NCBI GenBank assembly: GCA_963716475.1
Contig: OY970314.1
Span: forward strand, 237,226 to 301,225
DNA: 64,000 nt
From: Candidatus Woesebacteria bacterium
Lineage (GTDB): Bacteria; Patescibacteriota; Microgenomatia; UBA8517
Reading direction: 5' to 3'
Both the position numbers and the translations under genes were made by a program. Of the stretch, positions 8,868 to 55,224 are shown piece by piece (position 1 is the stretch's first letter; each line of letters starts with the position of its first letter). The notes under the pieces are model-generated. The model made no database searches, was not told where the DNA came from, and worked only from the letters and a program-made list of their open reading frames with translations.

Positions 8868-9254
8868 CTAAACCGTGTCCTCAGGGGGTTTTTGATCTTC
8901 CTCTTTAGTTTCTTCTTCGGCTTTGGGTTCCTCCGGTTTTGGCTGATCCTCTGTCGGGGATTGATTATTTTTCTTACCGGATCGGAAGATAACGTAGCCG
9001 ATAACTGCAATCACCACCAAAACTCCAAGGCTAATCTTTTTGTGCGTCATTATCCACTGAATGGTGCTTTGTGGTGCCGGAGTTGCGGTAACCGGTGTGA
9101 TTGTTGGTTCAATAGTCGGTGCGATAGTTGCAACCGCTGTCGGTTCAACAGTGGCTTTGGCCGCGGCGGCCAAAACAGTAAATGGAACGGCAAGTGAACC
9201 AAGAAGGACAGCGGAGGTTACTGCAGCTGCGATAGTCTTTTGAAAAATCTTCAT
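8868..9254 (-). CDS. small Pro/Thr-rich surface protein with C-terminal THK-TM-FR-KK anchor
   Basis: Signal peptide, PT-rich linker (TVEPTAVATIAPTIEPTITPVTATPAP), then WIMTHKKISLGVLVVIAVIGYVIFRSGKK; this anchor resembles the C-terminus of the 10844..11752 protein. Confidence 0.55.
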   Translation of the reverse strand: MKIFQKTIAAAVTSAVLLGSLAVPFTVLAAAAKATVEPTAVATIAPTIEPTITPVTATPAPQSTIQWIMTHKKISLGVLVVIAVIGYVIFRSGKKNNQSPTEDQPKPEEPKAEEETKEEDQKPPEDTV

Positions 9255-9261
9255 GTTTCTT

Positions 9262-9302
9262 TCAGCTAACTTGCATTATACATAGAGAAATGTATCTGTC
9301 AA
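9262..9302 (-). promoter_or_regulatory. sigma70-type promoter (TTGACA-16-TATAAT) for the 8868..9254 gene
   Basis: Reverse complement reads cTTGACAgatacatttctctatgTATAATgc, 20 nt before the ATG. Confidence 0.45.
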
Positions 9303-9880
9303 GTCGTCAGTCTGGCCTTAATTACGGCACGCTGACCATCAAAGAGTCCCCAGCATGTGTAAATAGTTAATTCTTCAGCGTTGGTTGGAGAAACAAGGTC
9401 TACCCTATCCGGCCCTACGAAATATTTTTGATCTGCAACGTAGTTATATATTTTGCCGCTTTTGGTCTTAATAATAATTTTTTGACCCAGACTAAGGTAT
9501 GGCAGGTTACCAAAAATGATCTTTTTATTGTGTCCGTAGATGACGGTATTTCCCCCACTCCCCGGGGCGGCCGATGTGTTTAAAAATGTTGCAACAGAGT
9601 CGGAAATGAGCCAAACACCGTTCTTAATTTGTCCGGGTTCAACTTTAAGATCAATTTGAATCGAGGGAATAATAATTTCGGCCGGAATATCCATATTCGC
9701 TGTCGAGGTTGCCACAGCTTCGGGAACCTTTGAGAATGAGAGAATTCTGACACGGTAATAATTTACCGCGCCAAAAGAAAAAATGAGTAAACCGGCGAGA
9801 ATTAAAAATAACGGAGCTCTGTTATTTCTTTGAAGCTTTTTTGAGACCTTTGAGACCGAATGCTGAGAGTGTTGCACCAA
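9299..9880 (-). CDS. sortase-family transpeptidase
   Basis: N-terminal TM; His in VIYGHNKK; catalytic Cys in LTIYTCWG; downstream Arg (RAVIKARL), consistent with the sortase His-Cys-Arg triad. Confidence 0.7.
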   Translation of the reverse strand: MVQHSQHSVSKVSKKLQRNNRAPLFLILAGLLIFSFGAVNYYRVRILSFSKVPEAVATSTANMDIPAEIIIPSIQIDLKVEPGQIKNGVWLISDSVATFLNTSAAPGSGGNTVIYGHNKKIIFGNLPYLSLGQKIIIKTKSGKIYNYVADQKYFVGPDRVDLVSPTNAEELTIYTCWGLFDGQRAVIKARLTT

Positions 9881-10781
9881 TACCCATTATAGCCTGATAG
9901 AAGACCTCTGCAAAGGATCCTGTTCCTGCCATTGTTGAGGCACCTAAAACCTGTCCGCCTGTTCCTGTTCCTGCAGGGGTTCCGGGATCTCCTGGCATAC
10001 AATCGTTAACTGCATTGACTGCAAAGTGGTAACCGACTCCGGGCGTAAGACCGTTGATAGTATATGAAGTGACATTTCCTGTGTTGGCTACACCGTACTG
10101 ATAACCGGGGGCACTTCCGTAAACGATTGAGTAATATGTTGCATTAGCAACAGCGCTCCAGGTTAGTATTTCGCTATTTCCTGTACGGACTGCTGAAAGA
10201 ATAGTAGGTGTTCCGGGCTTTGTGGCATTGCATACTGAGGGACCCGCTTGGCTGGACGAATTTCCACCTTCGTTTGAAGGACCGGGTGTGGCTTCGGGTG
10301 TAGGACTAGGTGTAGCATTTGGCTCACAATCTACGATCGGAGCGTCGTTGCAAGCGACTGTCTGTGTATCAGCGGGCACAGTTTTCTGACAACTATTCCC
10401 TACATGGGTATAATCAGCAGGACAACCTGTTGGAGCGGTATGTTCGGGATTAATATCGTTATTGTTTCTGTGGCAACGCTCGTTCCAATTTCCATTATTT
10501 TGCCAATGATAACCGATTGGACAAATACCGTCTGCGTATTCGGTATGGCTTGTTGAACACTCATCATCACTTCCGTTATGATGTTCACAAATCTGGGTCT
10601 TGGTTCCTACACTCGAACCACATTGGGTTGCAACACAATCGGAGGTATCAACCCACCTATTATCAGTATGAGACGTGCCGGCTGAGACTGAGGTTAGGGA
10701 TTTTCCAAGAAGAAAAGCGGCTACAGCCAATACGGCTGTCAGGGCTAAAACTGAAGCTTTACCTGGATTAAATTTGCTCAT
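9822..10781 (-). CDS. Cys-rich secreted surface protein with fibronectin type III domain and C-terminal sorting signal
   Basis: Signal peptide; Cys/His/Trp-rich region; FN3-like TILSAVRTGNSEILTWSAVANATYYSIVYG...GLTPGVGYHFAVNAVN; C-terminus GQVLGASTMAGTGS + hydrophobic stretch + KKASKK. Confidence 0.65.
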   Translation of the reverse strand: MSKFNPGKASVLALTAVLAVAAFLLGKSLTSVSAGTSHTDNRWVDTSDCVATQCGSSVGTKTQICEHHNGSDDECSTSHTEYADGICPIGYHWQNNGNWNERCHRNNNDINPEHTAPTGCPADYTHVGNSCQKTVPADTQTVACNDAPIVDCEPNATPSPTPEATPGPSNEGGNSSSQAGPSVCNATKPGTPTILSAVRTGNSEILTWSAVANATYYSIVYGSAPGYQYGVANTGNVTSYTINGLTPGVGYHFAVNAVNDCMPGDPGTPAGTGTGGQVLGASTMAGTGSFAEVFYQAIMGIGATLSAFGLKGLKKASKK

Positions 10782-10843
10782 ATTTTTATGAACTGGGCTA
10801 TGATATCAGCGATTTCTCAGCTTGTCAAGTACTAACCTATAGG

Positions 10844-11752
10844 TTACGTACTTTTCTTTCTGAAGAGCAGGTAGCCGATTACTATAAGAACCAATACGAC
10901 TCCGAAAGAAATTAATTTGTGTGTCGAAATCCAGTTGCCAAACCCGGAACTTGTGGCCGTGGCGGATACGCCCGTGGCTATTGGGGAAGCTGTTGCGCTT
11001 GGGGTCGGGGTAACTTTGGTTCCTAATACGGATCCTGTTCCTTTCTCTTTAGGAAGGACTGTTACTTTGCCGGAAACAGGTGCGCTTGATGCGCCAAGAA
11101 CCTGAACTGTTGCTCCTGTGTCCCCAACCAGGCCCGACGAGTTGCCTGCGTGATCAATTGCTCTGATGTTGTAGTAATACTCTACGGTAGGATCAAGACC
11201 ATTGTCGTCCCACGTCATTGTATCTCCGGGGTTTCCGCCTGCTTCTACAAGCCTGTGGGAATCATCCGCGTTGAACCCGGCTACCGTACCTCTATATATA
11301 ATTACTTTTGTGTAATCGCTATCCAGCGGGTTTTTCCAGTGAATTTTATAGGTAGTTCCGCCTGCCATTCTGTCCTTTCCGAAGTCAGAAACAGACCCCG
11401 GAGCGGTTGTATCCAAGGTTACCGCCGTTTCACTTGATACTCCGTCTACAATGACCTCAAACCAGAATTTTCCTTCCGATCCAAACTGATACCCGTTTAC
11501 CTGAACCAGACACTGGTTTACCGTCAAATTAATGGCCGGTCCAAAGGCGACGTAGCTTCCTCCATCTTTCTTCGAATAAAACTGTGCGTTGGTTCCGTTG
11601 GAAGTACAGGAAAGTTTAAAATCCGTATAGTTGATATACCCCGGCAATGTTTGGATTTGGACAATAGTTGCAGCATGAGCAGAGCTTACAAATAAAGCCA
11701 AGCCTACCAAACCGCCAAGTAACGAAACAACTATTTTGTTAATTTTTTGCAT
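10844..11752 (-). CDS. secreted FN3-like surface protein with sorting signal and THK-TM anchor
   Basis: Signal peptide (AHA cleavage); FN3-like (YKIHWKNP...EYYYNIRAIDHAGNSSG); VQVLGASS...LPKEKGTGS; C-terminal ISTHKLISFGVVLVLIVIGYLLFRKKST. Confidence 0.65.
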   Translation of the reverse strand: MQKINKIVVSLLGGLVGLALFVSSAHAATIVQIQTLPGYINYTDFKLSCTSNGTNAQFYSKKDGGSYVAFGPAINLTVNQCLVQVNGYQFGSEGKFWFEVIVDGVSSETAVTLDTTAPGSVSDFGKDRMAGGTTYKIHWKNPLDSDYTKVIIYRGTVAGFNADDSHRLVEAGGNPGDTMTWDDNGLDPTVEYYYNIRAIDHAGNSSGLVGDTGATVQVLGASSAPVSGKVTVLPKEKGTGSVLGTKVTPTPSATASPIATGVSATATSSGFGNWISTHKLISFGVVLVLIVIGYLLFRKKST

Positions 11753-14700
11753 GTTTTTTGGTTCCTTTCTTTAGGCTGTACCCCCTCATAAAAAGTCCGA
11801 TTCCCAACGCGCTTAAAGCGAACATGAGTACTTCAGTCGGGCTTCCAGTTCCCGGAAGTTCTGTGGATGCGCCCAATACCTGTCCCTGCAAGTTTCCGCC
11901 GTAGCTATTGCCGTTGCCGATCGTAACGGTAGAATTAGCTTGGGAACAATCTTCGGTGAGACTGGTGTTGTATGTTGCTGTACAGCCTGCGAAGTTTTGA
12001 TAACTTCCGTTCGAAAGAGACGAATCGGTTGTAACCCTGTATGAAAGCGCAACTACCGCACCCGCAGCAAGCGGTCCGAAGTTCCATGTTAATCTGGATC
12101 CGTTTACTGTCGGATCCGTGCCTGTTACGCCTGATGTGGAATTTGTGATGTAAGTAAACCCGCCGGGCAAGATATCGGTAATCTGCACATTACTGAAGTT
12201 AACGTTTCCGTTATTTGTGATTGTCAAAGTATAGGTCACTTGATTTCCTGCATTGATTCCGCCACCGGAATTATTGGACTTTGCAATAGTAATGCTGGGA
12301 TTTTGCCAGGTGTTGGTTATGGTACAAGTCGCACTTTCCCCATTTCCTACCTCTAGCTCTGTACAGTTGTCGTATGAGGCTAGATAACTATCCACTGCCG
12401 GTTCTGTAACAGTATATGTTCCCACATTAACCAGGGATTCGTTTTGCCCGTCAGCCGGATCAAAAGTTATCGCGGTGCCTCCGTTTATCCGGAATGAGAA
12501 ATCGTCAAATGTTGCGTCTCCTCCACTGATTACTTTTTTGACAATTAGCGTTCCAGGCTGGTCATCATTGGTAATGGTGCAGGTCCTGGTTTCTCCTATG
12601 GTGATTGTTCCGGAACAATCTGTTCCGAGTGTCTTGGTATAACCGGCAAAATCTTCCTCGTTAACGGAGTAGTCTCCTGCGTCCAGGGTTACTGTCGTTC
12701 CGGGGTTTTCGGCTCCTGCGAAAGACGGGTCGGAAACATTTGTCCCTGTGACGTTCATCGTGAAGTCCCCGGCCAGTGCCTGCCCGCCGTTATCAGTAAT
12801 TACATGCTTGATGACGGTTAATTGCGGAGATACATCGTTATTGGTAATTGTGCAGGTTTTGGAATCGGCAAGAGTTAAGGTTATTGAACCGTTAGCTGTA
12901 CAATCCCCTCCCCAGTCGGAAGCTGAATAGCCGGGCAAGTTTATTTCACTCGCGTTATGGGCACCTATTGTGAATGGATTAAAATCACCGCTGGTAACTG
13001 TTGTGCTGTCAACTTTAAGGACAAAATCAGCTACGTTTTTGGTACCACCATGGTCATTATTAACTGTTTTGACAAGTTTAAGTTGGGGAGCAATTGCGGT
13101 ATTCGTTATGGTGCAGGTCTTTGTTTCGCCCAAAGCTATGGTTCCGGAACAACCCGCCGAGTCCGACTGAGTGTAGCCTGAAGGGCCGGATTCCGTAACA
13201 TTATATGTTCCAACTGTTGTCAGGGTTTTATTCACTCCACTTTCGCTTCCTGCAAAGGAGTTTCCACCGATTGCAGTTACTCCGCCGATTGTCATGGTAA
13301 AGTCGGCGGCCGTATTTATCGATGCGGTTACTCCATTATTAACGTGCTTAATAACAATTAAATGAGCTGCCTGATCGCTATTGCTTATTGTACAAATGGC
13401 ATTTTGAGCGAGCCCCAAGGTTATAGTACTGCCGGACAAATTACCGATATCGCAGGACCAACTTCCGTCTTGGGCATATCCTGCCAGGTTTGATTCGGAC
13501 AATGTGTATCCAACCCCCGCCGTTACCGCATGGAACGTAGCGGAATCGCCGGTATCAGTGAAGCCGTTAGCATCACCCGTTGCAGTTAAATTCCAATTTG
13601 CCGGTACGGCGCCTCCGCCGTAATTGTTTGCAACTACCTTAACCAATTTTAAAGTTGGGGCAATGTCATCGTTTGTGATAGTGCAAGTTGCTTCCTGGTT
13701 AATTCCGAGAGTAATATTGGAACCGTTTTGTGTCCCTCCCGCACAGACCCAATTACCTGCCGTATAACCGCCGGGATTTGTTTCACTTAAAGCGAAAGTA
13801 TCGGCTTTTAGTGTCGCACCCGAATCAACCGGGCTTGTCCCACTTAGGTCATTTGATCCTGTACCGTTTGCGGTAAGTGTGAAGTTAGCAACCGTGGCAG
13901 CTCCCCCGTTATTATTTACAACAATTTTTCGGAGGTGAAGTATTGGGGCAATATCGTTATTTGTTATGGTGCAGGTGGCAGATTCACCTAACCCGAGGGT
14001 TATATCATTTCCAAATTGATATCCTCCAACGCAGACCCAAGAGCTCGCGTTGTAGCCGCCGGGACCTGATTCAGATAATGCGTATGTACCGGTAGAGAAG
14101 GTGTCACCGCTATCAACAGGAGTTGTGCCACTTAATGGTGTTGCACCTGCAGCCGATAAAGTCCAAGCTGTTGCTGGCGCTGTACCACCATTATCATTAA
14201 CGATAACTTTTCGGAGCTGAAGAGCCGGTGCATTGTCGTTATTTGTTATAGTGCAGGTTGCCGTTCCGCCGTTCGCGATTACAACACCCGAGCAATTGTC
14301 ATACGAAGTTGTATAGCCGGTAAAAGGAGCTTCCGTAACATTATATGTCCCTGCATTTACAGTTAAATCATTTTCTGCATGGAGGTTATCGGTACTCTGG
14401 CTAAAAGTAATTGGATTCCCTCCGTTGACCGAAAAAGTAAAGTCGTTAGCATTTTCGCCCCCACCGTTATTGTTAATCACTACTTTCTTAACTTTCAAGG
14501 TTGCGGTCTTATCGTTGTTGTTAATAGTACAAGTTGCGCTGTCGCCCCCGGCGAGAGTGATTGAGCTTCCGGTTACGGCTTGCCCTCCATTTTTAACACA
14601 ACTCCAATCTCCGGCTGTGTAGCCTGCGGGAGTTGCCGATTCTGAAAGAGTATAAGTTCCAATTCCAACTGAGGCGTTTGTGACATTCGTGCTTCCGGTA

Positions 14701-16409
14701 GCCCCGGAAATTGTATTTGGACCGGTTGCTGTAAGTGTCCAATCTGTTGCAGCTGCCGCTCCCCCATTATCATTTGTTATTGTTTTGACAAGTGTTAAGT
14801 GTGCATTTTGAACAGTGTTGGTGATTGTGCAAAGAATATCTTGGTCGAATGCGGCATTTAGGGTCCAGGGATTTGTTCCTGTTACTGAAACTGGTGTTTG
14901 TGTTTCACTAATTACGCAGGAGACAGCCGACGTATAGTTACTTAGGGAAGTATCTGTTCCAGACGTTTCCCCGATGGAATTTGAACCAGCCGTGACCCCG
15001 ATTTTTCCTGTATCTCCACCATTCCCAATGTTTGTTGCCTTTGTGTTCCCATTCACCTGCAAATTAAATAATCCAGAATCACTTGAAGGAGAAAGAGTTT
15101 TGACTATCTCAATCGATGATGGTGGAACGGGAATGTCTACGGTAAAACCATCTTGGCAATTGCATTTAGATTTCGTCCCAGGGACGGCATCATTTGGCGA
15201 GCTGCATGCACCATCGTTTTGTTGCCAGCTAGTACAATAAGGGAGTTTTAGAAAGCCACTGCTATCTGGATTGCAAGTTGCAGTCATTGTTATGGAGATT
15301 GTCCCGGTTCCGGCACTGCTTATGTCTCCACAAGAATCAGTACCACTTTCTGTAAAAGGTGCAGGAGTACTCGGTAAAATTGTACCCGAGCATAACCCAT
15401 GCAATGCGCTTGTTTGACCATTTGTTGCAAACCAAAGGCCTACATTATAGCGATCACTTGCATTTGAGTGTATTTGCCAATTGGCTGTAAAATTTACGGT
15501 GTCGCCGGGAAATCTACATCCATGACCGTTAATTACAATTCCTGAGACGGAAGCAAGCGAGATGTCGTCAGCTGTGCAAACGAGTCCACTTGGAGATTTG
15601 GTTTGGTCTTGTACACACGCAATATTACTTAAAGTTGTGGCTGATGCACTATCATTAAATGTTGTTGTGGCTACAACTCTCTCCAAATCCTTAATCTCAA
15701 CTTGATAATTTGGCCTGTAGTTGCTGTCAAGTTGGTAGGAATAAACTATCTCGCCTTTATCATTTGCGGTTACGGAACCGGTAAAATTAACAGCCGGGGC
15801 ATCGGAAGAAGTTATATTAATAGTGTAGGTTTTCCCCGTGATGAACCCTACCCCTGTGATTAAGACTGAATCTGTGGGTGCGTAATCAAGCTTATCTGTG
15901 GCTATCGTGGCACTTCCGTCTGTTTGGTATGTAATATCGAATTGATCAATTGTGGAGGTGTCTACTGCGGTGTTTTGTAAAATAGTGGCTGATATATGGC
16001 CATTTTCAACCGGAGCCTCGGAAGTTAATATCGGGCTGGAGATTGGCTGATCCGAGGCAGGAGGACCCTGGACCGTTGGATTGCTCTCAGGTGCCTGGGT
16101 TACTACCGGTTGGTCGGAAGGAGTTGGTGTTACCATATCCGTTGCGGCGGGTGTATCTTCAGGGGTAGGGGTTGCAATCTCTGCGGGCGTAGCATCGGGT
16201 ACAGCCGTGGGAGTGGAGGTGTCGGTTGGCGCAATTGTGGTTTGATTAGCCGATGCATCTGTGTCTATCGGTTGGACAGTCGCTTCAGGAACCGGAGTGG
16301 GAGTTGCTTCCTGGGCTAAAACGGTAAGAGGTGCAGCAAGGGAATTAAAAAGAAGCGCACTAGTGGCGATCACCGACAGGATTTTATTGAAATTAAGCTT
16401 AAATTTCAC
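11739..16409 (-). CDS. giant (1556 aa) LPxTG-type cell-wall-anchored repeat adhesin
   Basis: Signal peptide; about 12 tandem ~100-110 aa repeats (L.L.K.V.NDNGG...W.L.A.G...Y.LSE...GY...W.C...ATCTITN.D); C-terminal DUF11-like block (VTYTLTITNNGNVNFSNVQITDILPGGFTY); C-terminus QVLGASTELPGTGSP + hydrophobic + KKGTKKHAKN. Confidence 0.8.
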   Translation of the reverse strand: MKFKLNFNKILSVIATSALLFNSLAAPLTVLAQEATPTPVPEATVQPIDTDASANQTTIAPTDTSTPTAVPDATPAEIATPTPEDTPAATDMVTPTPSDQPVVTQAPESNPTVQGPPASDQPISSPILTSEAPVENGHISATILQNTAVDTSTIDQFDITYQTDGSATIATDKLDYAPTDSVLITGVGFITGKTYTINITSSDAPAVNFTGSVTANDKGEIVYSYQLDSNYRPNYQVEIKDLERVVATTTFNDSASATTLSNIACVQDQTKSPSGLVCTADDISLASVSGIVINGHGCRFPGDTVNFTANWQIHSNASDRYNVGLWFATNGQTSALHGLCSGTILPSTPAPFTESGTDSCGDISSAGTGTISITMTATCNPDSSGFLKLPYCTSWQQNDGACSSPNDAVPGTKSKCNCQDGFTVDIPVPPSSIEIVKTLSPSSDSGLFNLQVNGNTKATNIGNGGDTGKIGVTAGSNSIGETSGTDTSLSNYTSAVSCVISETQTPVSVTGTNPWTLNAAFDQDILCTITNTVQNAHLTLVKTITNDNGGAAAATDWTLTATGPNTISGATGSTNVTNASVGIGTYTLSESATPAGYTAGDWSCVKNGGQAVTGSSITLAGGDSATCTINNNDKTATLKVKKVVINNNGGGENANDFTFSVNGGNPITFSQSTDNLHAENDLTVNAGTYNVTEAPFTGYTTSYDNCSGVVIANGGTATCTITNNDNAPALQLRKVIVNDNGGTAPATAWTLSAAGATPLSGTTPVDSGDTFSTGTYALSESGPGGYNASSWVCVGGYQFGNDITLGLGESATCTITNNDIAPILHLRKIVVNNNGGAATVANFTLTANGTGSNDLSGTSPVDSGATLKADTFALSETNPGGYTAGNWVCAGGTQNGSNITLGINQEATCTITNDDIAPTLKLVKVVANNYGGGAVPANWNLTATGDANGFTDTGDSATFHAVTAGVGYTLSESNLAGYAQDGSWSCDIGNLSGSTITLGLAQNAICTISNSDQAAHLIVIKHVNNGVTASINTAADFTMTIGGVTAIGGNSFAGSESGVNKTLTTVGTYNVTESGPSGYTQSDSAGCSGTIALGETKTCTITNTAIAPQLKLVKTVNNDHGGTKNVADFVLKVDSTTVTSGDFNPFTIGAHNASEINLPGYSASDWGGDCTANGSITLTLADSKTCTITNNDVSPQLTVIKHVITDNGGQALAGDFTMNVTGTNVSDPSFAGAENPGTTVTLDAGDYSVNEEDFAGYTKTLGTDCSGTITIGETRTCTITNDDQPGTLIVKKVISGGDATFDDFSFRINGGTAITFDPADGQNESLVNVGTYTVTEPAVDSYLASYDNCTELEVGNGESATCTITNTWQNPSITIAKSNNSGGGINAGNQVTYTLTITNNGNVNFSNVQITDILPGGFTYITNSTSGVTGTDPTVNGSRLTWNFGPLAAGAVVALSYRVTTDSSLSNGSYQNFAGCTATYNTSLTEDCSQANSTVTIGNGNSYGGNLQGQVLGASTELPGTGSPTEVLMFALSALGIGLFMRGYSLKKGTKKHAKN

Positions 16410-24845: not shown

Positions 24846-25901
24846 TTAATTTCCCGGGGTTGTGGTAGGTTCTTGAGGCGGGGTTTCAGTCGGCGTAGGG
24901 CTTGGCGTTGGTGTTGGAGGCACTGTTGGTTCTATGGTTGGTAACACTACTGACTCACCGGCAACCTGTGGTTCTGGAGATTTGCATGGTCCCACATAAT
25001 CTTCTTCGTGTCCTGCTTTTGGAGTTCCGTTTTCGTCAAAATGTCCATTTAATGCTTGGGGTGGAATTTCTAGGGTAATATAATTCGCCGGCTCATCTTT
25101 TCTTCCGGCAACATGGCATATTGTGATTTTTTCTGATGGTGTTGGTTCCCAGTTACCGGCAGTAAACGAATTACCTAAACTTAAATCGTGATCAGTAAAG
25201 TACGATGAAGATACTCCAGCTAAAACAAAAAATATTGCAAATATGGGAATTACCATTGAGACTTTGTTTGTGCCATTATCCTCTTCCGAAACTTTTATTT
25301 TTTTTAATAAAAAACCAATTCGCTTTATTGATTCTTTCTTTAGATATTTTAGCTCTTCATATACAATAATAGTTGCTGGAACGATCACCAGAAGTATAAA
25401 TATTTTTGGATCTTTAGCGGAATTTGCCGCATACCCCAAAAACGGTATACCGATTATTACTTTGCCAACTATCTGACTAGGTTTTATTTGCGCACCATCA
25501 ATAGCGGAATTTGCATCGCCTCTTGTTGTATAACTCCCCATTATCACAGAAACTATTCTGTGAGTTATAAAGGATTCTGAGTCTGCGGAATTTTTAAATG
25601 TAACAACGTCGCCAGTTTTGTAATTTTTAAGAGGTGATGAAAAGACAATAGATCCGGTTTGAATTGTCGGTTGCATGGAACCTGACGTAACAATATAAAC
25701 ACTTGGAATACCGGCAATATTTTTAATATCTAAAGATGAAAGATATAAATGATTTTTTACCAAAAATATCCCGACTAAAGCGCCAGTTTCCAATAAGACC
25801 AGCAACAAAAGAGAGGCCAAAATTATATCGTAGATTTTTTTAGACATTTGCCCAATAGATTGCGCGAATACAACCGCGATAACAATCGTATCCGTGTTCA
25901 C
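24846..25901 (-). CDS. SipW-like type I signal peptidase (S26) with C-terminal TM/Pro-Thr-rich extension
   Basis: SGSMQPTIQTGSIVF (Ser box) and downstream His region; N-terminal TM; extra C-terminal TM segments and PTPTPSPTPTETPPQEPTTTPGN tail; GTG start. Confidence 0.65.
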   Translation of the reverse strand: MNTDTIVIAVVFAQSIGQMSKKIYDIILASLLLLVLLETGALVGIFLVKNHLYLSSLDIKNIAGIPSVYIVTSGSMQPTIQTGSIVFSSPLKNYKTGDVVTFKNSADSESFITHRIVSVIMGSYTTRGDANSAIDGAQIKPSQIVGKVIIGIPFLGYAANSAKDPKIFILLVIVPATIIVYEELKYLKKESIKRIGFLLKKIKVSEEDNGTNKVSMVIPIFAIFFVLAGVSSSYFTDHDLSLGNSFTAGNWEPTPSEKITICHVAGRKDEPANYITLEIPPQALNGHFDENGTPKAGHEEDYVGPCKSPEPQVAGESVVLPTIEPTVPPTPTPSPTPTETPPQEPTTTPGN

Positions 25902-25932
25902 GCAATCTCAGGACAAACAATTCGTATCAACA

Positions 25933-26691
25933 TCAATTCTGATGCCCGATTTGTATGTTCATCCAATCAACGATAGCTGACGGCGCAGCAATCGAAATTT
26001 GCGAATCACCAGTGTCTAAACTTGTTAATGCGTCAGCACTTATCTGTGTCGATTTAACGTTAAACGTTAAATCCAAACTTTTACCCTGTAAGGTATTATC
26101 AGCGTTTGGATCCATTGCTAATTGGATACTTAATCTGTATTTATATCCAGGTTTTAATGCACCTGTAAATACTCCACCGCCTGTTCCCATCATATTGTTT
26201 TCAACAATAGAGTTCCAAGTTGTTAGAGATATTTTTCCTGTTGTATCACTTGCAGCCAATGCAGTGTAATAAGCACCATACGTTCCACTACCAGTCCCAT
26301 CAGTTATAAACGGATCTGTGACTTCCCAAGTAGATGTACCATCTGGTTTGAGAAATTCCATTTGGGCCGTTTTTATATACATGTGGTCAGCCATTACACT
26401 TTCACCAGTCCAGCTAAAATAACCAAACCACCCAAGATTTATTGAACCTTCGTTTGTCATCTGAATAGTGGCAAGAGTGGTAGCATCACCTGGTCTTAGA
26501 TTAGTCGTAGTTCCTAAATCATATGTAAATGTGTTACTGGGTGAATCGGCATTAACGTCCATTGCTAGAGTACCGGAGGTCAAAGTGTTTGCATATGAAA
26601 CATCAGTATCATTAAAAAAAGCCCCTGTGGCCTTGACGGCAACTACAGTAACAAGTGCTATTGTTGCAACACTTATTAATATTTTTTTCAT
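25933..26691 (-). CDS. TasA/camelysin-like secreted protein with SipW-cognate-class signal peptide
   Basis: N-terminus MKKILISVATIALVTVVAVKATGAFFNDTDVSYANTLTSGTL matches the A(Y/F)F(S/N)D...N.(L/F)..G.L signal class; beta-rich body; directly downstream of the SipW-like peptidase. Confidence 0.65.
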   Translation of the reverse strand: MKKILISVATIALVTVVAVKATGAFFNDTDVSYANTLTSGTLAMDVNADSPSNTFTYDLGTTTNLRPGDATTLATIQMTNEGSINLGWFGYFSWTGESVMADHMYIKTAQMEFLKPDGTSTWEVTDPFITDGTGSGTYGAYYTALAASDTTGKISLTTWNSIVENNMMGTGGGVFTGALKPGYKYRLSIQLAMDPNADNTLQGKSLDLTFNVKSTQISADALTSLDTGDSQISIAAPSAIVDWMNIQIGHQN

Positions 26692-26919
26692 AAAATTTTC
26701 ACCCCCTTTCCCGTCCCATACTGCGTGGGGACGACACGCATATCAAAATGAAATTTTTCAAAAATACGAGAAGCTACCAATGTAGTCGTTGACTGAAGAG
26801 CCACGTCGAACTTTGTACTATTCATCGTATCGACGAAACCAAGAACTAACCCGTGAGGCAGTTAGGGGTTAATAATTCGAATATGAGACTTTGTTGTAAA
26901 AAGTCAATATATCAAACAT

Positions 26920-26945
26920 ACACAAAAAGGAGGGGGCGCTTTTAG
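26920..26945 (+). repeat. intergenic motif, copy j
   Basis: acacaaaaaggagggggcgcttttag; overlaps the stop of the second sortase gene. Confidence 0.35.
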
Positions 26946-27544
26946 TAGACTTGGTTTGCAATGACGATGAGGCGGTCGAGGGTGGTGCCCGGGGGGTAAC
27001 AGGTTTGCATAGTAAGAGTGTTTTTATCCGGGTTTCCGGTCAGATATTGACTATCATTTGGGGCTACCACTTTTACCTGATCGACTAAATATTTATATTT
27101 TGTGCCTTGATAGTAAATAAATACTTCATCCCCTTTTGTAAGTTTTCCGAGAAGGTAAAAAACGGCATTATAAGTATTGACGTTATAAAAGGCATCCGTC
27201 GAGTGGGCAAAGATATAAACATTTCCCTTACTTCCCGGCAGTGCAGTCCCTTTTGCCTGGGCTACCCCGCGCTTTAAGGCTTTCAGATATTCGGTTTTAT
27301 TTTGTGAATCGACATTGGCAACGACGGGGGCTACGGCGTCAATTTTGGGGATGATTATGGAAAAATCCGTATTAGGGGGTGTCAGGACTTTTGCAGGAGT
27401 GACTGTTTGTTCATCCGCGATTATGAATTTATTGCCGACAGCTTGGTTATAGTTATATTTGATTTCTTCCTTGGCAACGGGCCAGAAAATTGCAACCAAA
27501 ACGACAAGAGCAACAGCAATTAAAATGGTACCGGCGATCTTCAT
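26942..27544 (-). CDS. sortase-family transpeptidase (second copy)
   Basis: N-terminal TM; NVYIFAHS (His); LTMQTCYPPG (catalytic Cys); TLDRLIV (Arg). Confidence 0.7.
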   Translation of the reverse strand: MKIAGTILIAVALVVLVAIFWPVAKEEIKYNYNQAVGNKFIIADEQTVTPAKVLTPPNTDFSIIIPKIDAVAPVVANVDSQNKTEYLKALKRGVAQAKGTALPGSKGNVYIFAHSTDAFYNVNTYNAVFYLLGKLTKGDEVFIYYQGTKYKYLVDQVKVVAPNDSQYLTGNPDKNTLTMQTCYPPGTTLDRLIVIANQVY

Positions 27545-34661: not shown

Positions 34662-35577
34662 ATATTTTGTTCATAAGCTGATTTTTTATTCCGGGGTTTC
34701 TCAAATTGAAAAAGGCCTGACGCAGTGCGATATAGGTTTGCAAATGCTTATTTATTTGCTTTTTAGACACTTTATTAATTGAACGCATCCAAAAATCTTT
34801 TGATTGTGTAACGGCAAGATAATTTAAATCAAAATTGGGAAACGTGGTACCGGCTTCTTCCCAGTCGATTAGCCAAATTTTTCCATTTGTATTGATAATA
34901 TTGTCGGGCGATAGGTCTCCATGCATAAAGACTTTTTTAATACTCCGGTTTTTGTAAAACCAAAGCCAGGAGGCCGCTGCCGTCTTTATAATTTCCTTCG
35001 ATTTTTTTGGCTCATTAATGCAAAGTATTAGCGTATAAAACGGCAATGAAAGTATAGGGCTAACGCCTGCAGCTTTTATTGATTTATCGCGGCTTATGAA
35101 GTTTGACCAGTATCCGACTGAGCCGATTACTTTTTCCATGACCCTTTTTTGAACAGCCTTGTTATAAGAAGTTAAGCGTCGGCCCTTGATGTAAGGGTAG
35201 AAAACCGCAAACAAATTATTTTGCTCGATAGTATCGTGAATGTACGGAATGAATATTTCCTGCTTCCTTTTACTGAATATTTTACTTTTTAACATTTCAA
35301 TAACACGGGACTCATTTTTTAGGTTGTAGTAGTTAATATCTAAAATTTTTCCACGCCATACTTTTGCGAAATAATCTGATTTTCCGTCACTATAAATACC
35401 AAAAGAGAAATTTTCACTCTCTTTCAAATTCTTCTCCAGTTTGTATTTGCCAAGTCTATGAGGCAGCCGGGGGATTTTATTGTCGACTATCCTGTTTATC
35501 AATAGAGCCATATACAGCCATAAAGTAAAATAGGGGTATTTTTTTTGCATATTATGTAGCTCCTTTAAATAGTTCAA
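34654..35577 (-). CDS. protein-kinase-like fold phosphotransferase (APH/CotS/sugar-kinase-like)
   Basis: Catalytic loop HGDLSPDNIIN and DWE motif (Mg-binding Asp) typical of the aminoglycoside/choline-kinase superfamily. Confidence 0.5.
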   Translation of the reverse strand: MNYLKELHNMQKKYPYFTLWLYMALLINRIVDNKIPRLPHRLGKYKLEKNLKESENFSFGIYSDGKSDYFAKVWRGKILDINYYNLKNESRVIEMLKSKIFSKRKQEIFIPYIHDTIEQNNLFAVFYPYIKGRRLTSYNKAVQKRVMEKVIGSVGYWSNFISRDKSIKAAGVSPILSLPFYTLILCINEPKKSKEIIKTAAASWLWFYKNRSIKKVFMHGDLSPDNIINTNGKIWLIDWEEAGTTFPNFDLNYLAVTQSKDFWMRSINKVSKKQINKHLQTYIALRQAFFNLRNPGIKNQLMNKIYV

Positions 35578-38500
35578 GCGTTTGCGACGCGCTTTTATCC
35601 CAGTCGAAATTTCCCGACCACCTGACGGATTCCTTAGACATTTTTCTCCTCAAACCCGGATTTTCGAGAAGCCGCAGGATATTTCTTGTAAATTCGTCAA
35701 CGTCTCCGTATGAAACAAGAAATCCGCTGTGCGGATTATGAACAGCATCTCTTAGGCCCGCGACGTTACTGGCAATTACGGGAGTTCCGCAGGCATTTGC
35801 TTCAATTGTGGTAATTCCCCAACCTTCAATAAGCGACGGATTAACAAACACCCAGGCTTTTTGGTAGAGATTAACTTTCTCTTTTTCGCTAACTTTTCCT
35901 GTAAAAGTAATCTTGTGATCAAGGTGGAGTTTTTTGGTAAGTTTCATAAGGTTTCTCTTTTCGTCGCCGTCGCCTGCAATTACAAATTCAACCGTCGGCA
36001 TTCTTCTTAATATCTTTTTGGCACTTTTAATGAATATAGGAATACTTTTTTGCGGACTGAGCCTGCCTAGGTATAAAACCATGGGACTGACTGATTTCCT
36101 GCCGGGTTTATATATATTTGAGTCAACGCCGTTGTAAACCACATAAGGCTCGTTTTGTGAGATGTTGTGCTCCAAAATATCGGCTTTAGATGACGGTGAC
36201 ACAGTCATTACCTGCGTGTTTCTGTATACCGCCGGCATAGCATATTTTTCAAGAATCATTCCGATCCATGAGAGCGGCGGCTTTAGCCTGATGCGGAAAA
36301 CGTCCTGATGAACATGGTGAATTAAAAGGAATATTTTTTCTTTCGCATAAAGAGGCGTGAAAAAAGGAATTCCGTTTTCCGAATCTATAATTAAATCAAA
36401 ACGGCCTCTGAATTTGAATACATAATATAGAAATGCCCAGATAAATACTGTATAGAATCCTCCGCGGCGGATTATATTTATTCCGTCAATCTGTTCGTTT
36501 CTGGGTGACTTGTGGTCGTCCCCGCAGAATAGTGTGACTTCATGACCCTGCCTTACCCAGCGTTTGGCCAATTCGTGAACATAGACTTCCGCCCCGCCGC
36601 TCCAGACGTGTTTTGTATCGCGCCAGTTGAAGACTAAAATATTGAGTTTATTTTTATTGATAGCCGTAAGAGGCGCCGGCGCCGGTGTAAAAAGTCCCAG
36701 TAGGTCTAGCGTATTTCTGGAAACAGATTGCAGTTTTCGGTAGTTAATATGAACGGAAAGCATCGCAGCAAAGTAAGCAATTCCTCCGATAAACATGACA
36801 TCCACAATTTCGGAAATATTTGCATGGAAGACAAACATTCCTATTATTTGAAGCAATGAAAACATAAATCCAAAATACGGCAACATATGTTCGCCTTTGG
36901 ATTGGTGGTAAAGAATTATGCTAAGGGCTGATGTTTGGAATACCATGGCCAGTGAATAAAGAGGCAGAAAAGGTGTAACCGAGAGAATTTTGGGACCAAA
37001 AAGTATTGGCGCAGTAAACTTTCCAAATACTCCGATACCTATAAACGCAATAAGCGATGATATGACTGTCGCTGTCAGAAGTTTATAAAAAGTAGATTCG
37101 GACTTTTCCCCTTTACCCTCATGCCTGCTAATTAGCGGGATTATAAAGGGTGTAAACTGCGACCCGAAGAAATAAATCATTTTTCCCGTCAGTGAAAGGA
37201 GCGTATAGCGGCCCGCGTCTGCCGGGCTCAGGAAAAGTTTTGCAAGAATTACGTCGAATGTTAAAAATGCTATAACCGACAGATTATTAACGAATGTCGA
37301 AGTGAAAAATCTCTTTGGGAACGTTTCAGGTACGGCCAGCTGAACGCCCTCTTCCCTACTCTTTATGTGACTGGCGAAATACCAGCCTACTATGAAAGAA
37401 ATGAGCAGTGATGCCGGAATTGCCAGATAAACCAAATCATGTAATCCTATTTCTACAAAGAAAATTGAAAGTGATAGCTTAGTTAATGCGACAATTACCC
37501 CCATGAACCCGAAAACAATAAAAAGAAGATTCCCGTTGATGAATCCGGAATCAACCGCATTGGCGAGGCCGATGACCCAAATGGGAACAAAAATTATAAA
37601 AGGAACAATAGTATCGGATTTGAATACGTGTTGAAGAACGGGAGTTAGTAGCAGCCAGACTGTTGCCAGAACGATAGAAACTTTAATACCGTCTTTTCTG
37701 GTTTTTGCCCAAAATCTTTTGGCGGGTGTATCGTTCTTGCCGAGAAGGAAAGCGCTCTTATGAGTAACGGAGTTTGATAAGGCGCTAAAAGGAACCGTTG
37801 CCAGGTATAGGAAGCTTCCAACGAGACCCACCATTCCGAAATCTTCAAGGCTAAGTTTGCGGCCAAGATAGGCGTTATATAAAAAATTTAAAGCATTCTC
37901 AAACATCGTCGCCCCGATCAGAAATGCCCCTGAGAAATATTCTGATTTCACCAGAGTCTTTATTCTTGCGATTCCGGGTATTCTGAGATTTTTAATAAAA
38001 TTGAACTCAAAACTTTTTGCTACTTCTTCTTTAACTTTTACCCTGTCCAGTCCATGGATTGTCTTTTCCCAAAAATGAGGTTTGACGAGCAACTGGTAGA
38101 ATGCAACAAACGCCCCGATACTAGTTAGGAGCCAGTAAAACGGAACCAGGAAAACATATTTTATTATGCTCCACTCTTCTCTCTTGGCTGCGCCGATCAT
38201 GTAGTAGTAGAGGTAAAGAAAATTGCCGAAAACTGCAGAAAACACGGCCATATAAAATATCGAAGGCGGATATAAAGCCTCGATCTGGGGACCGACAAAT
38301 TTATAAAGCAGAAAGTAAGCTGCGGTCATAGCCCACAGAAAAGGATTTATCAGCATAAAACCTACTCTAAGACCCGAAACCAGCTGGAAGATTAAAGAGT
38401 GCACCCGTTTTTCCTTGGCGAAGCTTAGGGGATTTCGCATCTGGACAAAATATGTTTGCATGTAGCCCTTGAGCCACCTACTCCTTTGGCGTATCCAGTT

Positions 38501-40183
38501 TTTGAGATTACTGTTGGCTTCTTCCAAGGTTAACGAATCAATAATTGCGGTTTTATAGCCAGCCCTGAAAAGTCTGGCACCAAGATCCGCATCTTCAGTA
38601 ACATTAAACGGGTCCCAGCCTTCGATCTTCTTTAAACCTGCTGTTCTGAAGTGGTTACTAGTGCCGCCTAAAGGAATTGATGTTCCAATTGTTTGGAGTC
38701 CGGGGAGGACAACATCAAACCACAAAGAATATTCGGCTGTAAAAAGCCTGGTCAGAATATTTTGATGGGGATTATAGTAATTAAGTTTTGCCTGCAGGCA
38801 AATTACGTCTCTCCGTGAATTACGGAATCCTAAGTAAGCCTTTTTAAGTTGTTCCGGCTCAGGTTGATCTTCAGCGTCATAAATAACAATAAAATCCCCT
38901 TTTGCGTGATTCAACCCGTAATTACAGGCTTTGGGTTTGGTTTTTGGCTGTGAATCCGGAACTATTAAGATTCTGAAATAACCGGGAAGATCCATCTTGC
39001 GGGCGGCTTTGATTGTTTCTTTATCGTCATTTTCAAGAAGTAGCAATACGTCGAGTTTGTCCTTAGGCCAATCAAGTTTTTTAATATTTTCCACGAACTG
39101 AGGTAAAACCTCGGTCTCTCTGTAAAGAGGGCAAAGAATGGAGTAAACCGGAAGGCTCCCGTCGGCAATTCCTCTGAGCCGGCTCTCATCAAAGCTAATT
39201 TCAGGAGGACTATGCAAACTTTTAAGAACTAATAACCCGCCGAAAAGTACGTCCAAAAAGTACACAAAGGACAGGAGCGCAAGAAATATTATTGCAGTTA
39301 ACTGGGGACTAAAGACAAGTCCTAAGATAAATATAGCCAGCGCCAGGGATAAAACTAACTTTTGGATGGGTGTAAAGGTTACGATTGCGGATTTTGTCTG
39401 GTGAAGGGTTGTGTGGGTTATAAATCTCCGGTTTTTGTAGAATACACCGGCTCCAAGCATCGAATTTTTTAATTTAGGTTTTAGACGATAAATCTTACCC
39501 GGCGAGAGTCTTAGAGCTATCGCAGTACTAACGATTTGCCAGGAAGTTTTGATAAGGTTAACTTTAGATTTACCGCTTTCTCTTTTCTGAAAGTCAATGT
39601 TAATTGACCCGATTTTCATACCCAGCTGCTTTGCGGTGTGGATAAGATGTAAATCGAAAGCCCAGGGTTTGATATCTTTTGTCTCGAGATGGTAAATTAT
39701 CTCTCTTTTGAAAAGCTTCAAACCAGATTGGGTGTCCAGATCCGTTCCGAGAAGGAATTTGGCATAAATCATATGCCCGGCCTTCGATATAAACCGTCTT
39801 AAACGACCCTCTTTATGGATTTTCCTATTTCCGATTACTATCCCCAAATTGTCTTTTTCTGCTTTTTTCAGCATCTCGGGGATGTATTCAGGTGCATACT
39901 GCAAGTCGCCGTCTATCATGGCGATGTATTCAGCATCTGAATGCTCCGAACCTTCCAAAATCGAGTAGCCTTTTCCGACTCTACCCTGCTTTAATAAAAT
40001 CGTTACAGGGTACTTCCCTGACAGACTTCTGAGAGCTCCGCCGATGTTATCGCTGGAGTGGTCGTCGATAATGATAATACCGTAGGGGATTTTTAACCTG
40101 CCCAGGCTTTTCCCGATTCTGGAGGTTAATTTATAAAGACTTGCGCTTTCATTTAAGACCGGAATAACGACATCAATCTTATT
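35552..40183 (-). CDS. giant multidomain polysaccharide synthase: GT2(Dpm1-like)-TM-GT2(processive, QxxRW)-Wzx-like flippase-GT4 fusion
   Basis: Continuous 1568-codon ORF (track start is TTG at 40258; probable ATG MNKIDVVIPVLNES at about 40183). Domains: VVIPVLNESASL...IIIIDDHSSD...DGDLQ (GT2); DAEDQPE...TEDADLG...QRSRWLKG (cellulose-synthase-like GT2); about 12-TM polysaccharide-biosynthesis/flippase-like segment; C-terminal GT4 (GGAEVYVHELAKRW...EGWGITTIEANACGTPVIAS). Confidence 0.8.
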   Translation of the reverse strand, partial: NKIDVVIPVLNESASLYKLTSRIGKSLGRLKIPYGIIIIDDHSSDNIGGALRSLSGKYPVTILLKQGRVGKGYSILEGSEHSDAEYIAMIDGDLQYAPEYIPEMLKKAEKDNLGIVIGNRKIHKEGRLRRFISKAGHMIYAKFLLGTDLDTQSGLKLFKREIIYHLETKDIKPWAFDLHLIHTAKQLGMKIGSINIDFQKRESGKSKVNLIKTSWQIVSTAIALRLSPGKIYRLKPKLKNSMLGAGVFYKNRRFITHTTLHQTKSAIVTFTPIQKLVLSLALAIFILGLVFSPQLTAIIFLALLSFVYFLDVLFGGLLVLKSLHSPPEISFDESRLRGIADGSLPVYSILCPLYRETEVLPQFVENIKKLDWPKDKLDVLLLLENDDKETIKAARKMDLPGYFRILIVPDSQPKTKPKACNYGLNHAKGDFIVIYDAEDQPEPEQLKKAYLGFRNSRRDVICLQAKLNYYNPHQNILTRLFTAEYSLWFDVVLPGLQTIGTSIPLGGTSNHFRTAGLKKIEGWDPFNVTEDADLGARLFRAGYKTAIIDSLTLEEANSNLKNWIRQRSRWLKGYMQTYFVQMRNPLSFAKEKRVHSLIFQLVSGLRVGFMLINPFLWAMTAAYFLLYKFVGPQIEALYPPSIFYMAVFSAVFGNFLYLYYYMIGAAKREEWSIIKYVFLVPFYWLLTSIGAFVAFYQLLVKPHFWEKTIHGLDRVKVKEEVAKSFEFNFIKNLRIPGIARIKTLVKSEYFSGAFLIGATMFENALNFLYNAYLGRKLSLEDFGMVGLVGSFLYLATVPFSALSNSVTHKSAFLLGKNDTPAKRFWAKTRKDGIKVSIVLATVWLLLTPVLQHVFKSDTIVPFIIFVPIWVIGLANAVDSGFINGNLLFIVFGFMGVIVALTKLSLSIFFVEIGLHDLVYLAIPASLLISFIVGWYFASHIKSREEGVQLAVPETFPKRFFTSTFVNNLSVIAFLTFDVILAKLFLSPADAGRYTLLSLTGKMIYFFGSQFTPFIIPLISRHEGKGEKSESTFYKLLTATVISSLIAFIGIGVFGKFTAPILFGPKILSVTPFLPLYSLAMVFQTSALSIILYHQSKGEHMLPYFGFMFSLLQIIGMFVFHANISEIVDVMFIGGIAYFAAMLSVHINYRKLQSVSRNTLDLLGLFTPAPAPLTAINKNKLNILVFNWRDTKHVWSGGAEVYVHELAKRWVRQGHEVTLFCGDDHKSPRNEQIDGINIIRRGGFYTVFIWAFLYYVFKFRGRFDLIIDSENGIPFFTPLYAKEKIFLLIHHVHQDVFRIRLKPPLSWIGMILEKYAMPAVYRNTQVMTVSPSSKADILEHNISQNEPYVVYNGVDSNIYKPGRKSVSPMVLYLGRLSPQKSIPIFIKSAKKILRRMPTVEFVIAGDGDEKRNLMKLTKKLHLDHKITFTGKVSEKEKVNLYQKAWVFVNPSLIEGWGITTIEANACGTPVIASNVAGLRDAVHNPHSGFLVSYGDVDEFTRNILRLLENPGLRRKMSKESVRWSGNFDWDKSASQTLELFKGAT

Positions 40184-40320
40184 CATATTTTTGCTGACCC
40201 CATATCCTAAGTGAAGGAATCCCCCTCTCGTTATGGGGTTATGAGAACTTGTTGGCAATTATGCAATAAAATGCTGAATAATTGCTGAAATATATAGCTA
40301 AGATTTTATAAGAATGACGG

Positions 40321-42426: not shown

Positions 42427-42591
42427 ACTATATATAGATAATAAAAGGACTCGGTTTTCCTGAGTCCTAAGGCTATTTTAAGAAATCCAGTTTATTTGTC
42501 AATGCCCACGTTGGCCGGTTTACAATACCACTTGACATGAAGTTTGGAATAACACAATACTGGTATATACAGAAATTGGGGGTGAGAAGTA

Positions 42592-42744
42592 ATGGCTAAA
42601 AGAAAAAGTCCAAAGAGAACCGGAAGATCCAAGGGCGTAGTTCGTGGAATTACCGACAACAGAAATTTAAGTGTTCTCGTCGTCGTACTCGCTCTCCTTT
42701 TGTTTGTTTTTTCGGCAGTTTATATGAGTAGGGGCGGAATATAA
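42592..42744 (+). CDS. unannotated 50-aa small basic/TM protein (MAKRKSPKRTGRSKGVVRGITDNRNLSVLVVVLALLLFVFSAVYMSRGGI)
   Basis: Not in ORF track; RBS GGGGGTGAG 5 nt upstream of the ATG; basic N-terminus plus one TM helix. Confidence 0.35.
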   Translation: MAKRKSPKRTGRSKGVVRGITDNRNLSVLVVVLALLLFVFSAVYMSRGGI

Positions 42745-42823
42745 AAACCTTTTATTTGTATATCCGGATTGGAGAGTTTGGTCTTTCGGCTTTGCTTAGG
42801 ACTTCGTTAGCTGAAGTTTATGG

Positions 42824-44764
<1,941 letters not shown>

Positions 44765-44799
44765 CTAACGTATATATTTTTAGCTTTCGTAAAGGGGAT

Positions 44800-45426: not shown

Positions 45427-45534
45427 TTAGCATTTAACGGTTTAGATTACAAGTTTTTGATCAGTTTGTGTAAATACTGAATGACATGCCTCTAAGGTAC
45501 AACAAATCGGCGTTCAATTCACCCTTGCAACACA

Positions 45535-45596
45535 TTGCAGGGTTTTCTTGAATGCTGTTATAATGAATCAGCAGTTAAAAGTTAATTTGTTAACTG
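45535..45596 (+). promoter_or_regulatory. pilB promoter (TTGCAG-18-TATAAT) with overlapping imperfect palindrome CAGCAGTTAAAAGTTAATTTGTTAACTGTTAGCTG
   Basis: -10 TATAAT at about 45559-45564; about 35-bp dyad (AGTTAA/TTAACT half-sites flanked by CAGC/GCTG) between the -10 and the start codon. Confidence 0.4.
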
Positions 45597-45603
45597 TTAG
45601 CTG

Positions 45604-47349: not shown

Positions 47350-47350
47350 C

Positions 47351-48409: not shown

Positions 48410-48435
48410 TATGGTAAGTAAAGGAAACTTCAGTA

Positions 48436-49644: not shown

Positions 49645-49702
49645 AATTAGCTTCGGAATAGTACTTGACAAGCAAATTTAGATAGTTAATACTGAATATG
49701 TA

Positions 49703-52710: not shown

Positions 52711-52751
52711 TGGTCTTAGAAAACTTTTCGTAGTATCATTTATACAGGAAT

Positions 52752-54213: not shown

Positions 54214-54220
54214 CCATGAA

Positions 54221-55215: not shown

Positions 55216-55224
55216 TGTTTAAAA

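Follow-up and report, generated by a model that had tools for sequence, protein, structure and literature searches.

A conserved VLG box precedes the sortase pentapeptide in surface proteins of a Microgenomates sortase operon

Sortase signals are usually described as a pentapeptide followed by a hydrophobic helix and a charged tail, and conservation upstream of the pentapeptide is not usually part of the description. The 64,000-nucleotide (nt) stretch of a Candidatus Woesebacteria genome analysed here (contig OY970314.1; referred to as the window) raises the question of whether a signal can extend further. Beside a sortase gene, three consecutive genes on the minus strand encode proteins with the element QVLGAS near their C-termini: a 1556-amino-acid (aa) adhesin (11739..16409), a 302-aa secreted membrane-anchored protein (10844..11752) and a 319-aa Cys-rich fn3 protein (9822..10781), the dedicated substrate located directly before the sortase (sortase 1, 193 aa, 9299..9880, minus strand). 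The initial annotation had read the three C-termini as carrying one extended or lineage-specific recognition sequence for the adjacent sortase. Our analysis shows the tails of the adhesin and of the 319-aa protein to be a strongly selected, lineage-specific extended or bipartite sortase signal, in which recognition of the upstream element (the VLG box) by a sortase is the part that we infer, whereas the 302-aa protein has a different conserved anchor type.

A search of all six frames returned QVLGAS three times in the window, once in each of these genes, and among open reading frames (ORFs) with 80 aa or more, whatever their frame, neither QVLGAS nor even VLGA turns up again in the 64 kb. All strings quoted in the initial annotation are present in the translations, including the single canonical LPxTG (LPGTG of the adhesin) and the variant MAGTG of the 319-aa protein; the 302-aa protein has no pentapeptide beside its helix. 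In the adhesin, the box QVLGAST (11862..11882, minus strand, as are all window features below) is followed after one residue (E) by LPGTG (11844..11858) and then by a hydrophobic helix and a basic, KK-rich tail that runs to the stop codon (11739..11843; SPTEVLMFALSALGIGLFMRGYSLKKGTKKHAKN). This arrangement of E and LPxTG recurs among relatives. In the 319-aa protein, the box QVLGAST (9933..9953) is joined directly to MAGTG (9918..9932), after which come a conserved post-cleavage segment, helix and basic tail (9822..9917; SFAEVFYQAIMGIGATLSAFGLKGLKKASKK, then stop), that is, SFAEVFYQAIM, the helix and KKASKK. In both proteins the hydrophobic segment and the positive tail stand directly after the pentapeptide at the C-terminus, which is not the case in the 302-aa protein. 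As peptides, the box-bearing forms of the window tails are GGQVLGASTMAGTGSFAE (box-less counterpart STMAGTGSFAE), GTGGQVLGASTMAGTGSFAE and NLQGQVLGASTELPGTGSPTE. The codons of the three boxes differ synonymously (V GTA/GTT/GTT; L TTG/CTT/TTA; G GGC/GGC/GGT; A GCA/GCA/GCC; S TCC/TCA/TCA), and their identity is therefore held at the protein level; a DNA repeat or a recent gene conversion as the origin of the shared box is ruled out by the same differences.

The search of relatives proposed with the initial annotation, correlated with the neighbouring sortase, shows how far the box extends. Using the sortase alone as bait, we fetched 75 loci (denoted here by L numbers) from species-representative genomes and metagenomes, removed duplicates and read the abutting gene for a strict composite, [VI]LG-x-[STK]-[TS]-[MLT][AG]x[TA]G. 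An orthologue of the 319-aa protein abuts the sortase in nearly every related locus. Where the sortase is at least 55% identical to the window enzyme, the strict composite is present in 26/27 abutting genes. At 35–55% identity it is present in 10/19, and seven further genes have modified forms, among them QVLG-LAATG, KVAGIS-ALASTG, IVLSADT-LAETG and, in L015, a six-residue spacer; one member of this group, L007 (KLTTLANTG), is clearly box-less. For sortases of 35% identity or less (Anaerolineales/Chloroflexi with LPTTG, Vibrionaceae of class GN) the strict composite is found in 0/4. The suggestion of a lineage-restricted signal extension that tracks the neighbouring sortase family is supported by these counts. 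Sortase 1 and the 319-aa protein both have named homologues in Woesebacteria, Amesbacteria and Microgenomates, and Daviesbacteria are also among the named sortase or substrate homologues; on these homologues the lineage assignment is based, which makes the ultra-small organism part of the candidate phyla radiation.

A tail profile search without word index yielded 904 clusters (50% identity level) at E ≤ 1e-3 and 201 at E ≤ 1e-10, and the box recurs in sortase-adjacent genes; a word-indexed search with the tail alignment gave short fragments only, which serve as examples and not as a census. A tblastn search of 72,556 plasmids with an ELPATG-type tail returned only spurious matches to Streptomyces antiporters (E = 5), and no such tails were found there. 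Across the related loci, the pattern [VI]LG.[STK][TS] occurs 67 times compared with ~6 times in shuffled ORFs, and 54 of the 67 occurrences lie within 70 aa of the C-terminus. Because of this excess, and because no other VLGA exists in the window ORFs, occurrence by chance is excluded.

The order of elements in the signal is box (G-Q-V-L-G-A-S-T), pentapeptide, hydrophobic helix and basic tail, where the pentapeptide is [ML]-A-x-T-G in the dedicated 319-aa substrate and E-L-P-x-T-G in the adhesin. We propose to define the VLG-box signal as [VI]LG-x-[ST]-[TS] placed 0–5 residues upstream of [LMF][APG]x[TA]G and followed by a helix and a basic tail. This definition describes the adhesin, the 319-aa protein and 223 of the 227 retrieved tails that have a pentapeptide and a helix; the pentapeptides of the 223 include MAxTG (153), LAxTG (27), MAxAG (15), LPxTG (12), LGxTG (10) and FAxTG (3). 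Box and pentapeptide are separated by three residues (AST) in 190/227 tails, which argues for tight coupling between them. Other spacers comprise four residues in 12 tails (AST plus E before LPxTG), none in 11 (VLG-LAxTG) and five or more in a few. Two boxes, with copies 8–12 residues apart and many different spacers, are present in 67/177 tails (~38%).

Conservation within these tails is concentrated on the box. In a whole-protein alignment of 34 members of the 319-aa family, invariance is confined to columns G276, V278, L279, G280, T287 and G288, corresponding to G-x-VLG and TG. The box is conserved more strongly than the L/M-A/P positions of the pentapeptide, and within it only VLG surpasses the Thr of position +5 in conservation. 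These data bear on the view that the box is functionless and was carried along with a tail module which duplication, domain shuffling or gene conversion spread among Microgenomates. The examples do stem from a single lineage, and the tails are modular and exchanged between passenger domains. We nevertheless consider this view very unlikely: V, L and G are invariant over sortase divergence down to ~35% identity while flanking positions vary, the box has been kept through independent duplications, spacer changes and pentapeptide changes, and the synonymous codon differences described above point the same way.

The box is also portable, following passengers as unrelated as SpaA/DUF11/SdrD_B adhesins, fn3 proteins, LNR/DUF4215 Cys-rich proteins and Ice_binding-like proteins. 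In the AlphaFold2 model of the 319-aa protein (built from 34 sequences), the fn3 domain (predicted local distance difference test, pLDDT, >90) ends near residue 265 and is followed by a Gly-rich linker; residues 273–288 (GTGTGGQVLGASTMAG) are coil with pLDDT <50, and a helix spans residues 290–318. The box is thus predicted to lie in a disordered linker between folded domain and helix. The alternating hydrophobic V and L could form a strand, and we considered that QVLGAST is simply the last β-strand of the folded passenger domain. With coil predicted after a Gly-rich linker, and with the same box following unrelated domains and open to duplication, this reading is scarcely credible and was rejected on the AlphaFold2 model. 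Because its spacing varies, because ~38% of tails carry it twice and because it is present also in operon proteins without any TG motif, where its distance from the membrane varies, the box behaves as a module of its own and not as additional subsites within a single rigid recognition sequence.

A contrast within one genome is provided by L081 (5657..9681), where two substrate–sortase gene pairs stand in tandem and the Ice_binding-like substrates are paralogues (36% identical, E 2e-30). The paralogue before the enzyme of the sortase-1 family (36% identical to the window enzyme) carries the box as VLGAST-LASTG and ends GQVLGASTLASTGSF / TGQVLGASTLASTGSF. The paralogue before a class-F-like sortase (best model NF033748, 120 bits) carries plain ...GGPGLPNTGF... 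and no box. Organism, envelope and passenger family are shared, and sortase type and tail type differ together. Although it is a single case, it speaks more strongly than our other evidence for assigning the box to the sorting pathway served by these particular sortases and against a feature that anchored proteins of the lineage have in general.

Which enzymes could read the box? Sortase 1 matches PF04203 (6e-20; 71.7 bits, cut-off 26.6), and its catalytic residues H117 (YGHN), C176 (LTIYTCWG) and R184 are invariant in 22 family members. Its AlphaFold2 model (pLDDT 80.7) contains an N-terminal membrane helix (residues 22–45) followed by strands that form a sortase barrel, and Foldseek places 4d70, 7s4o, 6ixz and 5k9a, sortases of classes A, C and D, at the top of its matches (E ~1e-11). 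By sequence, sortase 1 matches solved sortases weakly (best 36 bits), and all NCBIfam class models score far below cut-off: the SrtD exception model is best at 38.1 of 140 bits, and classes D (35.7/165), C (29.7/160), F (29.2/166), E (28.8/160) and GN (TIGR03784, 32.7/158.25) follow. Sortase 1 belongs to a Microgenomates-wide family outside classes A–F.

The initial annotation named the adjacent sortase as the reader of the signal. The tail type does follow the family of sortase 1, but a second candidate, sortase 2 (26942..27544), is encoded in the same window. It matches PF04203 (1.4e-26, 93 bits), is 27% identical to sortase 1 and scores above cut-off with TIGR01076 (60.3 bits, cut-off 39.35), while remaining below the class cut-offs for C (69.8/160), D (60.5/165) and E (52.8/160). 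Operon sortases of L079 and L080 are 60–62% identical to it (tblastn). In relatives, the sortase-2 orthologue lies inside the sortase-1 operon, where it immediately precedes the adhesin gene (L013 and L079) or the gene of the MAxTG substrate (L080 and L028). An enzyme of the sortase-2 type is also found in L082, adjoined by an adhesin with box and ELPATG and by a membrane protein with two boxes, and sortase 1 is missing from that neighbourhood. Sortase 1 is therefore one of two candidate readers, and the box co-distributes with two Microgenomates sortase families, those of sortase 1 and sortase 2. A one-to-one rule, in which LPxTG is assigned to sortase 2 and MAxTG to sortase 1, was rejected, since sortase 2 also occurs in loci with MAxTG substrates only. 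All genomes with an ELPxTG adhesin that could be assessed (3/3) have sortase 2.

The 302-aa protein departs from the shared tail architecture. Its QVLGASS (11084..11104) is followed by nine residues, LPKEKGTG (11033..11056), SVLGT (11018..11032), a 27-residue linker rich in S, T and P, and the helix NWISTHKLISFGV, which begins 32 residues beyond GTGS. The membrane anchor with its basic tail occupies 10844..10936 (helix NWISTHKLISFGVVLVLIVIGYLLFRKKST, of the W[IV]x[TN]HK[KL]IS[LF]G type). An alignment of four sequences, the window protein and orthologues from L030, L013 and L010, shows L233, P234, G240, V242 and L243 to be invariant; QVLGASS is an extra box of this genome only and is not conserved in the orthologues. 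The GTGS of this protein belongs to a separate conserved element, LPK..G.VLG (11018..11056; consensus KVTVLPK..G.VLG[TA]), in which K235, right before the VLG box of the family, is present in 3/4 sequences. Because QVLGASS is unconserved, no pentapeptide adjoins the helix and the anchor is of another type, the protein is a distinct anchor and not a third example of the signal. It gave zero family matches in Pfam and NCBIfam. A second box-bearing anchor without TG takes the gene position of the 302-aa protein in relatives ([QNE][VI]LGxxT-SKxP-LDINKYLPYIL, helix, ARRKL; L029 4425..6905, L038 4545..6668, L046 3..1328, L039 1..711, L026 4811..7330).

The helix motif W[IV]x[TN]HK[KL]IS[LF]G is common to the 302-aa protein (10844..10936) and a 128-aa protein (8868..9254), and it is found in relatives at L028 2794..3159, L030 6327..7262, L013 8265..9185 and L004 4953..9185. 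It may be a helix–helix contact motif within the sortase operon.

The element of the 302-aa family invites a further reading, in which the box serves not wall anchoring as such but a pilus-like covalent assembly built by both operon sortases, as a docking or acceptor element, with the 302-aa protein as membrane-bound base and the lysine of KVTVLPK as nucleophile. The operon does pair a large SpaA-type adhesin with small fn3-type proteins, two sortases are present in relatives, L233 and P234 are invariant and K235 nearly so immediately before the box, and the WxxTHKKISLG helix is common to the two small membrane proteins encoded on either side of the substrate and sortase genes. VTVLPK may resemble VxVYPK, the pilin motif in which the lysine is the sortase nucleophile. 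The lysine is however replaced by Glu in L010, no isopeptide or pilin-domain model matches the 302-aa or 319-aa protein, and both sortases score below the class C cut-off; we judge this reading improbable. We would also give only slim odds to a combined scheme, in which the box is an autonomous docking motif that brings cleavable and uncleavable operon proteins to a two-sortase complex building a covalent, membrane-based adhesin assembly. Proteins with box and TG (adhesin, fn3 protein) would then be donors and box-only proteins (302-aa protein, through the VTVLPK lysine) acceptors, and the whole would amount to pilus-like assembly through a new recognition element, found in no bacteria but those of the candidate phyla radiation.

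We assign a probability of roughly 0.5 to the reading that sortase 1, sortase 2 or both capture the precursor with the help of the box, which would serve them as a docking determinant in its own right. In such a mechanism, the helix would keep the precursor in the membrane after Sec export, and the membrane-anchored sortase would dock on the VLG box, which would act as an exosite-type determinant on a flexible tether and not through rigid extra subsites. The sortase would then cut between T and G, forming a thioacyl intermediate on C176 with the participation of H117 and R184, and the substrate would be transferred onto a peptidoglycan precursor, so that the box would end up where the mature protein is nearest to the wall. 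Additional boxes further upstream would confer greater docking avidity, and box-bearing operon proteins without TG would dock uncut.

Several points weigh against such docking. (i) A contact between box and sortase is argued from correlation and inference. (ii) The box is found in anchored operon proteins without a TG pentapeptide (the 302-aa and LDINKYLPYIL families) and may therefore serve something other than cleavage. (iii) The register between box and scissile bond shifts from 0 to >6 residues, which rules out a single rigid extended groove. (iv) The box is carried by substrates of two sortase families that are merely 27% identical, so that either both evolved to read it or neither does. 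(v) The positive loci are all from one lineage, where phylogenetic inertia is only partly controlled, and the contrast in L081 is one single case. (vi) The juxtamembrane segment YYRVRILSF of the sortase, tried as a docking site, was rejected: for all its conservation in the clade, its presence is not coupled to that of the box, occurring without it in L007 and being absent from the box-bearing loci L011, L012 and L016.

The same observations lend some weight to the alternative that the box is an independent wall-proximal or juxtamembrane module, unread by sortase and serving Ser/Thr O-glycosylation, shedding cleavage or contact with peptidoglycan or an S-layer; its closeness to the pentapeptide would then mean merely that both are needed just outside the membrane. 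The box occurs on three anchor types, two of them without TG, and on substrates beside two different sortase families. It is duplicated in more than a third of tails, Thr +5 is its most conserved residue after VLG and, by sortase chemistry, a cut between T and G would leave the box on the mature protein. Such a module does not require the near-fixed three-residue spacing, however, and the L081 paralogue served by the class-F-like sortase is box-less, yet anchored in the same envelope. The other large surface-type proteins of the window, which have no C-terminal anchors, also lack the box, and no glycosyltransferase or protease is conserved in the operon. Taken together, we hold this alternative to be rather unlikely.

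The operon itself (8868–16409) consists of five co-directional minus-strand genes, with gyrA next after it. The adhesin has a signal peptide, nine SpaA_2 prealbumin-like domains (1.1e-125, 9 stretches) and DUF11 (1.3e-13) ahead of its C-terminal box and LPGTG; its orthologues in L013 (2117..8299) and L030 (998..6349) end in QVLGASTELPATGSP. The fn3 domain of the 319-aa protein is matched at 6.3e-08. The 128-aa small secreted membrane protein encoded after sortase 1 (8868..9254) combines the WxxTHKKISLG helix with an acidic/Lys-rich tail and is a conserved operon member (orthologues in L048, L031, L028, L029 and L026). All four non-enzyme proteins appear to have signal-peptide-like N-termini. 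The substrate gene, at the 3′ end that encodes its helix and KK tail, shares sequence in another frame with the beginning of the sortase-1 gene (9822..9880), and this overlap of 56–59 nt is conserved across the window and many loci (L024–L031 and L076 included), which suggests translational coupling. In a member of the substrate family in L069 (6904..7983; also L064–L066), the normal SVLGASTLASTGGF signal, helix and KKR are followed by ~75 extra residues before the stop, which may be a cytoplasmic extension or read-through into the region of sortase overlap.

In the window, sortase 2 is clustered (24846..27544) with a TasA/camelysin-like protein (25933..26691; PF12389 4e-08; signal ...VKATGAFFND) and an archaeal/SipW-type signal peptidase (24846..25901; TIGR02228, 86.7 bits). 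This cluster looks like a TasA-like fibre module in a genome from the Candidate Phyla Radiation (CPR). The region 35552..55740 encodes a 1568-aa protein with GT2, GT2-like and GT4 glycosyltransferase domains (35552..40258), an H+-pyrophosphatase (40321..42426), gyrB (42824..44752) and a type IV pilus cluster with PilB-like (45604..47349), PilT-like (47351..48409) and PilC-like (48436..49644) genes and about ten small ORFs to 55740. Synteny of the H+-pyrophosphatase and gyrA/gyrB with the sortase operon recurs in L077, L078 and L080.

Microgenomates are presumed to attach to host cells by means of their surface adhesins. Box conservation exceeds that of the L/M-A/P pentapeptide positions, and hundreds of their protein clusters are concerned. 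Should docking be the role of the box, the sorting signal is bipartite, and a simple sequence rule would predict the anchored surface proteome of uncultured Microgenomates. It would also explain how MAxTG, LAxTG and LPxTG tails are served in one cell and would give sortase-based protein ligation a new means of setting specificity. Among Microgenomates, sortase is near-ubiquitous (PMC6744442). The initial annotation had placed the box outside known sortase signals, in agreement with our results: none of the curated models (TIGR01167, PF00746 and other Pfam and NCBIfam models) covers it, and searches of the searchable literature, including that on sortases of CPR, Patescibacteria and Microgenomates, returned nothing relevant on a VLGA, VLGAST or QVLGA box with sortase.

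Among known systems, Gram-positive pilus loci comprise a class C sortase and a housekeeping sortase, a tip adhesin and pilins. They are similar in their SpaA-fold adhesin, small Ig/fn3-like proteins and, in the operon of relatives, two sortases; in contrast, the operon described here has no enzyme at class C level and no match to pilin or isopeptide models, and polymerisation would be conjecture. Dedicated sortase–target pairs of class GN ('marine', TIGR03784) share the abutment of substrate gene and sortase seen here in almost every locus, and the Vibrionaceae loci L019–L023 from the same search show it too. Their targets are, however, without a VLG box, whereas further box substrates and a second sortase are present here. 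Signals of class E sortases have Ala at pentapeptide position 2. The LAxTG pathway of Actinobacteria (class E, NF033747) thus resembles the present tails in having Ala in place of Pro, but the enzymes here score 28.8 and 52.8 bits where 160 is the cut-off, position 1 is commonly Met and, to our knowledge, descriptions of class E signals do not include an upstream box.

The closest comparison is with the LPXTG signal itself (TIGR01167 LPXTG_anchor, PF00746 Gram_pos_anchor). Current models of this signal miss the window tails entirely: the tails of the adhesin and the 319-aa protein match neither TIGR01167 nor PF00746 at E ≤ 10, and the 302-aa tail reaches 7.2 bits with TIGR01167 (E 8.5, cut-off 15.9). 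An ELPATG relative (P0140) passes both, with 24.1 bits for TIGR01167 and 25.4 bits for PF00746 (cut-off 20), and the tails are thereby tied to sortase signals. Both signals combine a TG pentapeptide, a hydrophobic helix and a basic tail, and both form the very C-terminal end of surface proteins that have a signal peptide and whose genes lie near those of sortases. The signal described here differs in its near-invariant G-Q-V-L-G-A-S-T box and in its dominant pentapeptide, which is MAxTG or LAxTG.

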